A stretch of DNA of 64,000 bases from NCBI GenBank assembly GCA_048938105.1, contig JBHLMN010000002.1, positions 96,001-160,000 on the forward strand. Direction: 5' to 3'. Numbering within the stretch: position 1 is the stretch's first letter; every line of letters begins with the position of its first letter. Under the pieces are notes generated by a model. It saw nothing but the letters and a program-made list of their open reading frames with translations, was not told where the DNA came from and made no database searches. The translations under genes were made by a program, and so were the position numbers. Below, in pieces: positions 5,781 to 6,055 of this stretch. The stretch is from Promethearchaeota archaeon. Lineage in GTDB: Archaea; Asgardarchaeota; Heimdallarchaeia; Hodarchaeales; Hodarchaeaceae.

Positions 5781-6055
5781 AGAACCTATGACTAAGACGG
5801 GTCTAGTCCCAACGGGTGCAAAACCTCGCTTTTCGCATTCGTCCCATTAATGGGAAATGGTCAGGCAAGCAAATAATTTTGGTCTAGACATCCCAACCGA
5901 ATCATTGCAAGTCATGATTGAAAAAGGAGACATATTAACACGCACTCCTGAAAAGTTATCTGGCAGATGGACAGGATAGAGGGCATAGGGTTATGCCCCA
6001 TATGATGGAGGCTAGCATCGGTAACGAGCTAGTTGATGACCTCATGTGAACACAA
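5781..6055 (+). ncRNA. Candidate structured ncRNA or leader with a K-turn hairpin
   Basis: Consecutive hairpins (GGGCATA/TATGCCC 5981-5998; AATCAT/ATGATT; AGGAG/CTCCT) and a GUAA-capped hairpin at 5999-6048 with K-turn consensus; no long ORF. Confidence 0.5.

Follow-up and report, generated by a model that had tools for sequence, protein, structure and literature searches.

The segment that separates a MutY-like glycosylase gene from a methyltransferase gene in this Hodarchaeota (Asgard) archaeon is a protein-less mobile insertion of 420 bp, not a host RNA gene. Sequence similarity identifies the last 146 nt on its 3′ side as the omegaRNA scaffold plus right end typical of one TnpB family linked to IS607, and its 5′ ~130 nt, as covariation indicates, are a separate and undescribed RNA domain. 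We consider it probable that the insertion is a non-autonomous, protein-less derivative of an IS607-type tnpA–tnpB element and serves as a guide-RNA gene in its own right. The best reading is a PATE-like stand-alone guide cassette that would borrow TnpB to cut the empty allele of its locus. Counted in favour of this explanation are the empty orthologous sites of both copies in this genome, and a 5′ domain that is as conserved as the scaffold and covaries between two subfamilies.

The insertion and its dispersed copies

All coordinates refer to the plus strand of the window, the whole 64,000-nt stretch of DNA that was analysed. From 4777 to 13559 it encodes a MutY-like glycosylase and then large amino-methyltransferases. 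The host genes that flank the element, which is gene-less and bipartite (5668–6087), encode a MutY-like HhH-GPD glycosylase (4777–5634; Pfam PF00730, PF10576) and an amino-methyltransferase (6089–8665). The reading frame of the latter had been called from an ATG at 6056 that lies inside the element, which adds 11 codons drawn from the right-end hairpin; orthologues align from residue 10–16, and their start is the ATG at 6089.

The adjacency of mutY and the methyltransferase gene is kept in 15 of the 16 sister genomes checked, and the element is missing in the 15 in which the two genes are neighbours. The gap between them measures tens of bases in the closest sisters, compared with 421 here. 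At the empty site in the closest sister genome (G003), the sequence ending at 5667 is fused straight to the sequence starting at 6088, which defines the element as 5668–6087, 420 bp long and without target duplication. The insertion is scarless. It lies behind a target-adjacent motif of host DNA that ends in TAT (5664–5667, read from the same empty site) and one base before the methyltransferase start codon at 6089. An earlier note on this DNA had drawn the boundaries at 5781 and 6055; the actual unit extends beyond both and has two parts.

A search of its own genome with the element gave 11 matches, the majority at tnpB 3′ ends. They include a second full-length copy (C52, 419 bp), whose empty site is found in six genomes, also behind TAT, and nine matches that cover the 3′ part only. 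The 3′-only matches correspond to tnpB gene ends (PF01385, PF07282, NF040570). Altogether, 13 copies of the mini-element were found, in 4 of 399 Asgard genomes and in metagenomes, and they form two subfamilies with different left ends. Nine are close copies (two in this genome, four in G012, one in G005 and two on metagenome contigs), and G020 carries three copies of the second subfamily, ~530 bp long and with a different left end, together with one decayed copy. The dispersed copies have sharp ends, and empty orthologous sites are seen for both copies in this genome. TAT stands 5′ of all close copies and of the G020 subfamily, and three empty alleles of tnpB-bearing copies likewise end in TAT.

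Some candidate features and copies were set aside. A 4-bp target duplication fits two copies and fails for the other six. Two separate origins of the subfamilies were not upheld: the tree sets the subfamilies apart, but a single clade is not rejected (p-AU 0.26). Two metagenome matches (L055 and L057) have only one 21-mer in common (15.7 bits) and were dropped as chance. Model matches in G153 and G020 C47 were dropped as they fall inside protein genes.

The earlier note had proposed a cellular L7Ae-bound non-coding RNA, an H/ACA-like guide or a leader controlling the methyltransferases. Such roles would fit the K-turn pattern, the TATA box and the position one base before the methyltransferase start, as well as the presence of L7Ae-family genes. 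Against them, the element is absent at this locus in the 15 sister genomes that keep the gene pair, and its other copies adjoin unrelated genes, of which several are convergent. The element does not keep a position in front of the same genes, and the unrelated, often convergent neighbours of the other copies exclude a leader role; nor is a dispersed mobile insertion, whose site is empty in sister genomes, a cellular non-coding RNA. We regard these cellular roles as highly improbable, and the empty sites largely refute them. Transcripts that run on from the element's promoter may, as a side effect, alter methyltransferase expression. That promoter now sits between mutY and the methyltransferase gene, with no terminator-like site before 6128.

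The AT-rich left end of the element (5668–5749) averages 70% identity among copies. Profile and BLAST searches found no autonomous parent with the window left end, and detected the left ends only in mini-elements. In the G020 subfamily, the left segment (L091:1289–1500, ~210 nt) is conserved, unrelated to the window left end and without a match elsewhere in five genomes. The parent of the left ends may be unsampled. Decayed copies also exist, one in G020 (C64) and one (L056) from which the T-loop and some of scaffold hairpin 2 are deleted; the latter (L056:3490–3900) lies directly downstream of a ribosomal-protein operon.

The TnpB scaffold and its K-turn pattern

The 3′ half of the element (5942–6087) is 76–85% identical to the 3′ ends of tnpB genes in this genome. 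It comprises a remnant of the last ~30 tnpB codons (5942–6032, with the stop at 6030–6032) and the right end proper (6033–6087), beyond which all copies diverge. The predicted fold consists of hairpin 1, hairpin 2, a K-turn hairpin and a right-end hairpin. Across 34 sequences, 92% of cells are paired and 18 of 42 pairs are doubly changed, a count that kinship among the sequences inflates; in the right-end hairpin (6051–6080), five of nine pairs are doubly changed. A terminal pseudoknot joins the loop of hairpin 2 (5988–5992) to the last five bases of the element (6083–6087). With 99.4% of cells paired in the 34 sequences it is nearly invariant, so that the sequences fit it but covariation does not prove it. 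The scaffold ends where the element ends and is followed by a variable, host-derived guide.

The hairpin at 5999–6048 has the arms and the GNRA loop that the earlier note described, and its K-turn pattern holds as well, in canonical form: the C-stem is the upper stem (6010–6016/6028–6034), the 3-nt bulge lies at 6035–6037 and the tandem G–A pairs join 6038–6039 with 6008–6009. The four G/A positions are invariant in all 34 homologous scaffolds, a conservation that is inflated because the left strand of the K-turn is also protein-coding in tnpB copies. L7Ae-family genes are present, and binding of L7Ae to this candidate K-turn is plausible. In the literature searched, we found no description of a K-turn in a TnpB scaffold, and searches on TnpB with K-turns, L7Ae, fluoride riboswitches or Asgard non-autonomous elements returned nothing on this element.

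The structure also bears on the H/ACA proposal, since the K-turn hairpin belongs to the TnpB omegaRNA scaffold. Unlike in archaeal H/ACA guides, the lower stem (5999–6005/6042–6048) runs straight into the K-turn and leaves no pseudouridylation pocket. As to the ACA or ANA box that such guides carry at the 3′ end, ACA follows the hairpin in 1 of 34 scaffolds and AUA in 31; the position is not terminal, as the right-end hairpin comes after it. The hairpin differs from box C/D sRNAs in that its box-C-like strand is 3′, the partner strand is not a box D and there is no Rfam match.

A fluoride riboswitch was likewise rejected. The match, a weak one to a scaffold of the G020 subfamily (L091:1704–1783, on G020 C1), reached 16.8 bits against a gathering threshold of 34 (E 0.054); it stems from the K-turn strand and from hairpins of like topology, and the window copy does not retain it. 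In the same G020 scaffold, the hairpin-2 loop could alternatively pair with bases after the K-turn strand.

Other tnpB-related remnants were seen. A frameshifted tnpB copy is followed, 1.5 kb downstream, by one short, gene-less tnpB right-end remnant (G000 C6:193287–193480). A distinct conserved segment, rich in purines, occurs 100–300 nt upstream of short tnpB 3′ remnants and in one full element (L039, L138, L139, L149 and L126, in G002 C58, G003 C24, G014 C447, G007 C1 and G003 C124); these loci are probably another family of internal-deletion derivatives. Between two tnpB copies, ARAGORN called a putative intron-containing tRNA-Pyl (CUA) (G000 C11:135861–135970), possibly a false call.

The putative promoter and the 5′ RNA domain

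An archaeal TATA-like box (5750–5757) lies 24 nt before 5781 and is kept in all close copies. Its position is kept in both subfamilies, it precedes the 5′ domain in 13 of 13 copies and it predicts a transcription start near 5781–5785. The earlier note was also right that the segment is GC-rich (0.45 in 5781–6055, against 0.23 upstream and 0.31 downstream). The single-sequence fold of 5781–6055 is no better than that of shuffled sequences (z −1.17), and the 3′ part alone folds better than shuffles (z −2.9). Support for RNA structure comes from covariation, not from folding energy: homologues were recovered, and both the scaffold and the 5′ domain covary. What stands of the earlier proposal is an RNA that is structured, shows a K-turn pattern and has a promoter of its own, though not a cellular one.

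The 5′ domain (5785–5918) is found only in mini-elements. It is closed by a helix (5788–5793/5910–5915) with changes on both sides between the subfamilies, and continues through helices at 5798–5800/5897–5899 and 5801–5812/5879–5889 into a three-way junction that holds a T-loop/GNRA-like hairpin (5814–5826) and an irregular arm (5828–5870). In the core, 97.6% of cells are paired, with five doubly changed pairs; slid controls reach 31–57%. Mean identity is 0.87 in the domain and 0.86 in the scaffold, compared with 0.66 in the variable linker between them (5919–5941) and 0.70 in the left end. The scaffold follows the domain in 13 of 13 copies, and the domain never occurs without it.

Rfam gave no credible match for the window segment, for either subfamily or for the tnpB loci. 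Searches of 40 tnpB-end loci, of the 395 other Asgard genomes with two patterns, and of viral contigs and phage or plasmid collections did not find the domain; since the models scored only a restricted set of candidates in each genome, remote relatives may have escaped notice. Resemblances to group I and II introns and to cobalamin, SRP, twister and HDV RNAs fail on order or pairing.

Two smaller claims about this region fared less well. The duplicated module (at 5800 and 5881) exceeds chance in the window copy (6 of 2,000 shuffles), but just two of the nine close copies have it in full; what is conserved of it is a 6-mer complementary to itself, whose two occurrences (5801–5806 and 5884–5889) pair with each other to form one helix. 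The 40-aa micro-ORF is not conserved, ranging from 3 to 40 aa and being frameshifted or stopped among 12 copies.

The main rival to a protective or maturation leader is a catalytic or enzyme-recruiting 5′ domain. The domain would then be the active module, as a self-processing ribozyme or a platform for the moving enzyme, and the omegaRNA would be its passenger. Arguing for this, many unpaired bases are invariant across subfamilies that are only ~61% identical, two different left ends are joined to the same two RNA modules, and neither left end has a parent transposon. Counter to this, no Rfam ribozyme or intron matches at E ≤ 5–10, and the domain shows no conserved complementarity to the scaffold. 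The sequence upstream of the promoter also moves with the element, which points to transposition at the DNA level. We judge this reading unlikely.

Alternatively, the element may be a decaying chimera, in which a captured piece of an RNA gene or element was fused once to a tnpB right end and has hitch-hiked since without function. Its patchy distribution and its decayed copies could be read in this way, as could the inflation of covariation counts by changes shared among kin. Yet the domain is clearly better conserved than the linker and left end beside it, compensatory changes keep four helices across subfamilies and no donor locus was found; we think a functionless chimera improbable, more so than an active module. 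A guide cassette with a functional leader remains our preferred explanation.

Proposed guide use and mobility, and significance

This genome encodes at least four full-length, apparently intact TnpBs of the scaffold's family; resident TnpB loci include G000 C11:129279–130487 and C4:140833–142041. The four keep the RuvC-I D, an alternative E and the RuvC-III D; the RuvC-II glutamate has become glycine, and the alternative glutamate lies ~43 residues before RuvC-III. The RIIr-5/TnpB2 arrangement has been reported to be active (PMC10530073, PMC10691335). The rearranged RuvC glutamate likens the resident TnpBs to RIIr-5/TnpB2 proteins such as TvTnpB (PMC10691335, PMC10530073), although the TAM predicted here differs from NTGAC. 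The TnpBs nearest to the window scaffold are those in other genomes (G002, G013), so its loading by the resident TnpBs is putative.

The mover is most likely an IS607 serine transposase, the sole candidate found. IS607 transposases (NF033518) score above cut-off in G013 and in this genome (G000 C52:248905–249474), which has no Y1 transposase. In G013 the transposase gene lies directly upstream of the same TnpB family, and it also precedes that family in several deletion derivatives; this association is with the TnpB family and not with the mini-element itself. Some evidence weighs against a derivative of this kind. Searches turned up no autonomous parent that has this left end or this 5′ domain. 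The left junction ends in AT and the right end in CT, with only the last T in common, so there is no matching core dinucleotide; the junctions lack a CboIStron-like GG core and resemble TAM insertion of the IS605 type.

Drawing on known OMEGA biology (PMC10055086, PMC10691335), we suggest the following sequence of events. A serine TnpA acting in trans would insert the element, and the TATA box would then drive an RNA of ~305 nt together with read-through. The 5′ domain would take the place of the lost tnpB message, as a leader that protects, folds or matures the transcript until TnpB loads; it probably protects or matures it. TnpB made elsewhere in the genome would bind the 146-nt scaffold and trim it, host L7Ae may bind the K-turn, and the loaded TnpB would use the next ~16–20 host bases as guide. 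In the window the predicted guide (6088–6107) is host DNA that spans the methyltransferase start codon (6089–6091), with no other full match in this genome. The guide region differs in every copy; here it corresponds to the sequence that follows TAT in the empty allele. TnpB would thus cut element-free mutY–methyltransferase junctions at a target made up of TAT and the initial ~20 bases of the methyltransferase gene, and repair templated by a filled copy of the chromosome would keep or spread the element. The filled allele would be safe because there the guide sequence follows the right end rather than a TAM.

Transcription is predicted. Small shares of two public runs yielded contigs only, which cannot show transcription: three of 81–126 nt in X1, confined to the scaffold and one of them with a tnpB-type loose end, and one of 244 nt in X2, from a further mini-element copy. 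None covers 5785–5868.

By analogy, the element would work like a PATE or stand-alone omegaRNA, with an extra module as in IStrons that is not a group I intron. PATEs, the omegaRNA-bearing IS200/IS605 derivatives (Meers et al., PMC10055086), are also gene-less and keep the right end and scaffold. Like the stand-alone omegaRNAs (Altae-Tran et al., PMC10691335), they sit scarlessly behind a TAM and depend on transposase and TnpB in trans. Unlike in either, the linked TnpB family here travels with an IS607 serine transposase in a genome without Y1 TnpA, a foreign promoter and a 130-nt structured domain lie inside rather than a simple deletion of the parent, and the left end has no known parent. 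The IS607 CboIStron (10.1101/2023.11.20.567912) likewise combines a serine TnpA and TnpB family, an omegaRNA overlapping the tnpB 3′ end, a terminal pseudoknot and extra structured RNA 5′ of the scaffold. In contrast, the extra RNA here is too short for a group I intron and has no Rfam intron match, the TAM ends in TAT rather than TGGG, and the junctions share no GG core. Archaeal sotRNAs and IS1341-type omegaRNAs (PMC4615843, PMC12558985) resemble the scaffold in their place at the tnpB 3′ end, their right-end hairpin and a pseudoknot of the second hairpin loop with the terminal motif. Here, however, there is no Rfam sot-family match, and the RNA is detached from its gene and has its own promoter.

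With these findings, the segment drops out as a candidate for a new cellular RNA of Asgard archaea or for a regulator of the methyltransferases. What remains is a compact, testable OMEGA cassette, in which the ends, the TAM (TAT), the scaffold and the guide are legible from the sequence, and an undescribed, covarying RNA domain that selfish elements have kept across two subfamilies. In a bolder and rather doubtful version, the domain would represent a novel class of functional RNA, either a ribozyme that matures itself or a platform for a mobilising enzyme, with L7Ae as a true subunit of the TnpB RNP; if so, that class would enable an element without proteins to preserve its guide RNA and to spread. 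The conserved K-turn pattern suggests that host L7Ae may join the TnpB complex, a possibility that concerns the archaeal lineage closest to eukaryotes.
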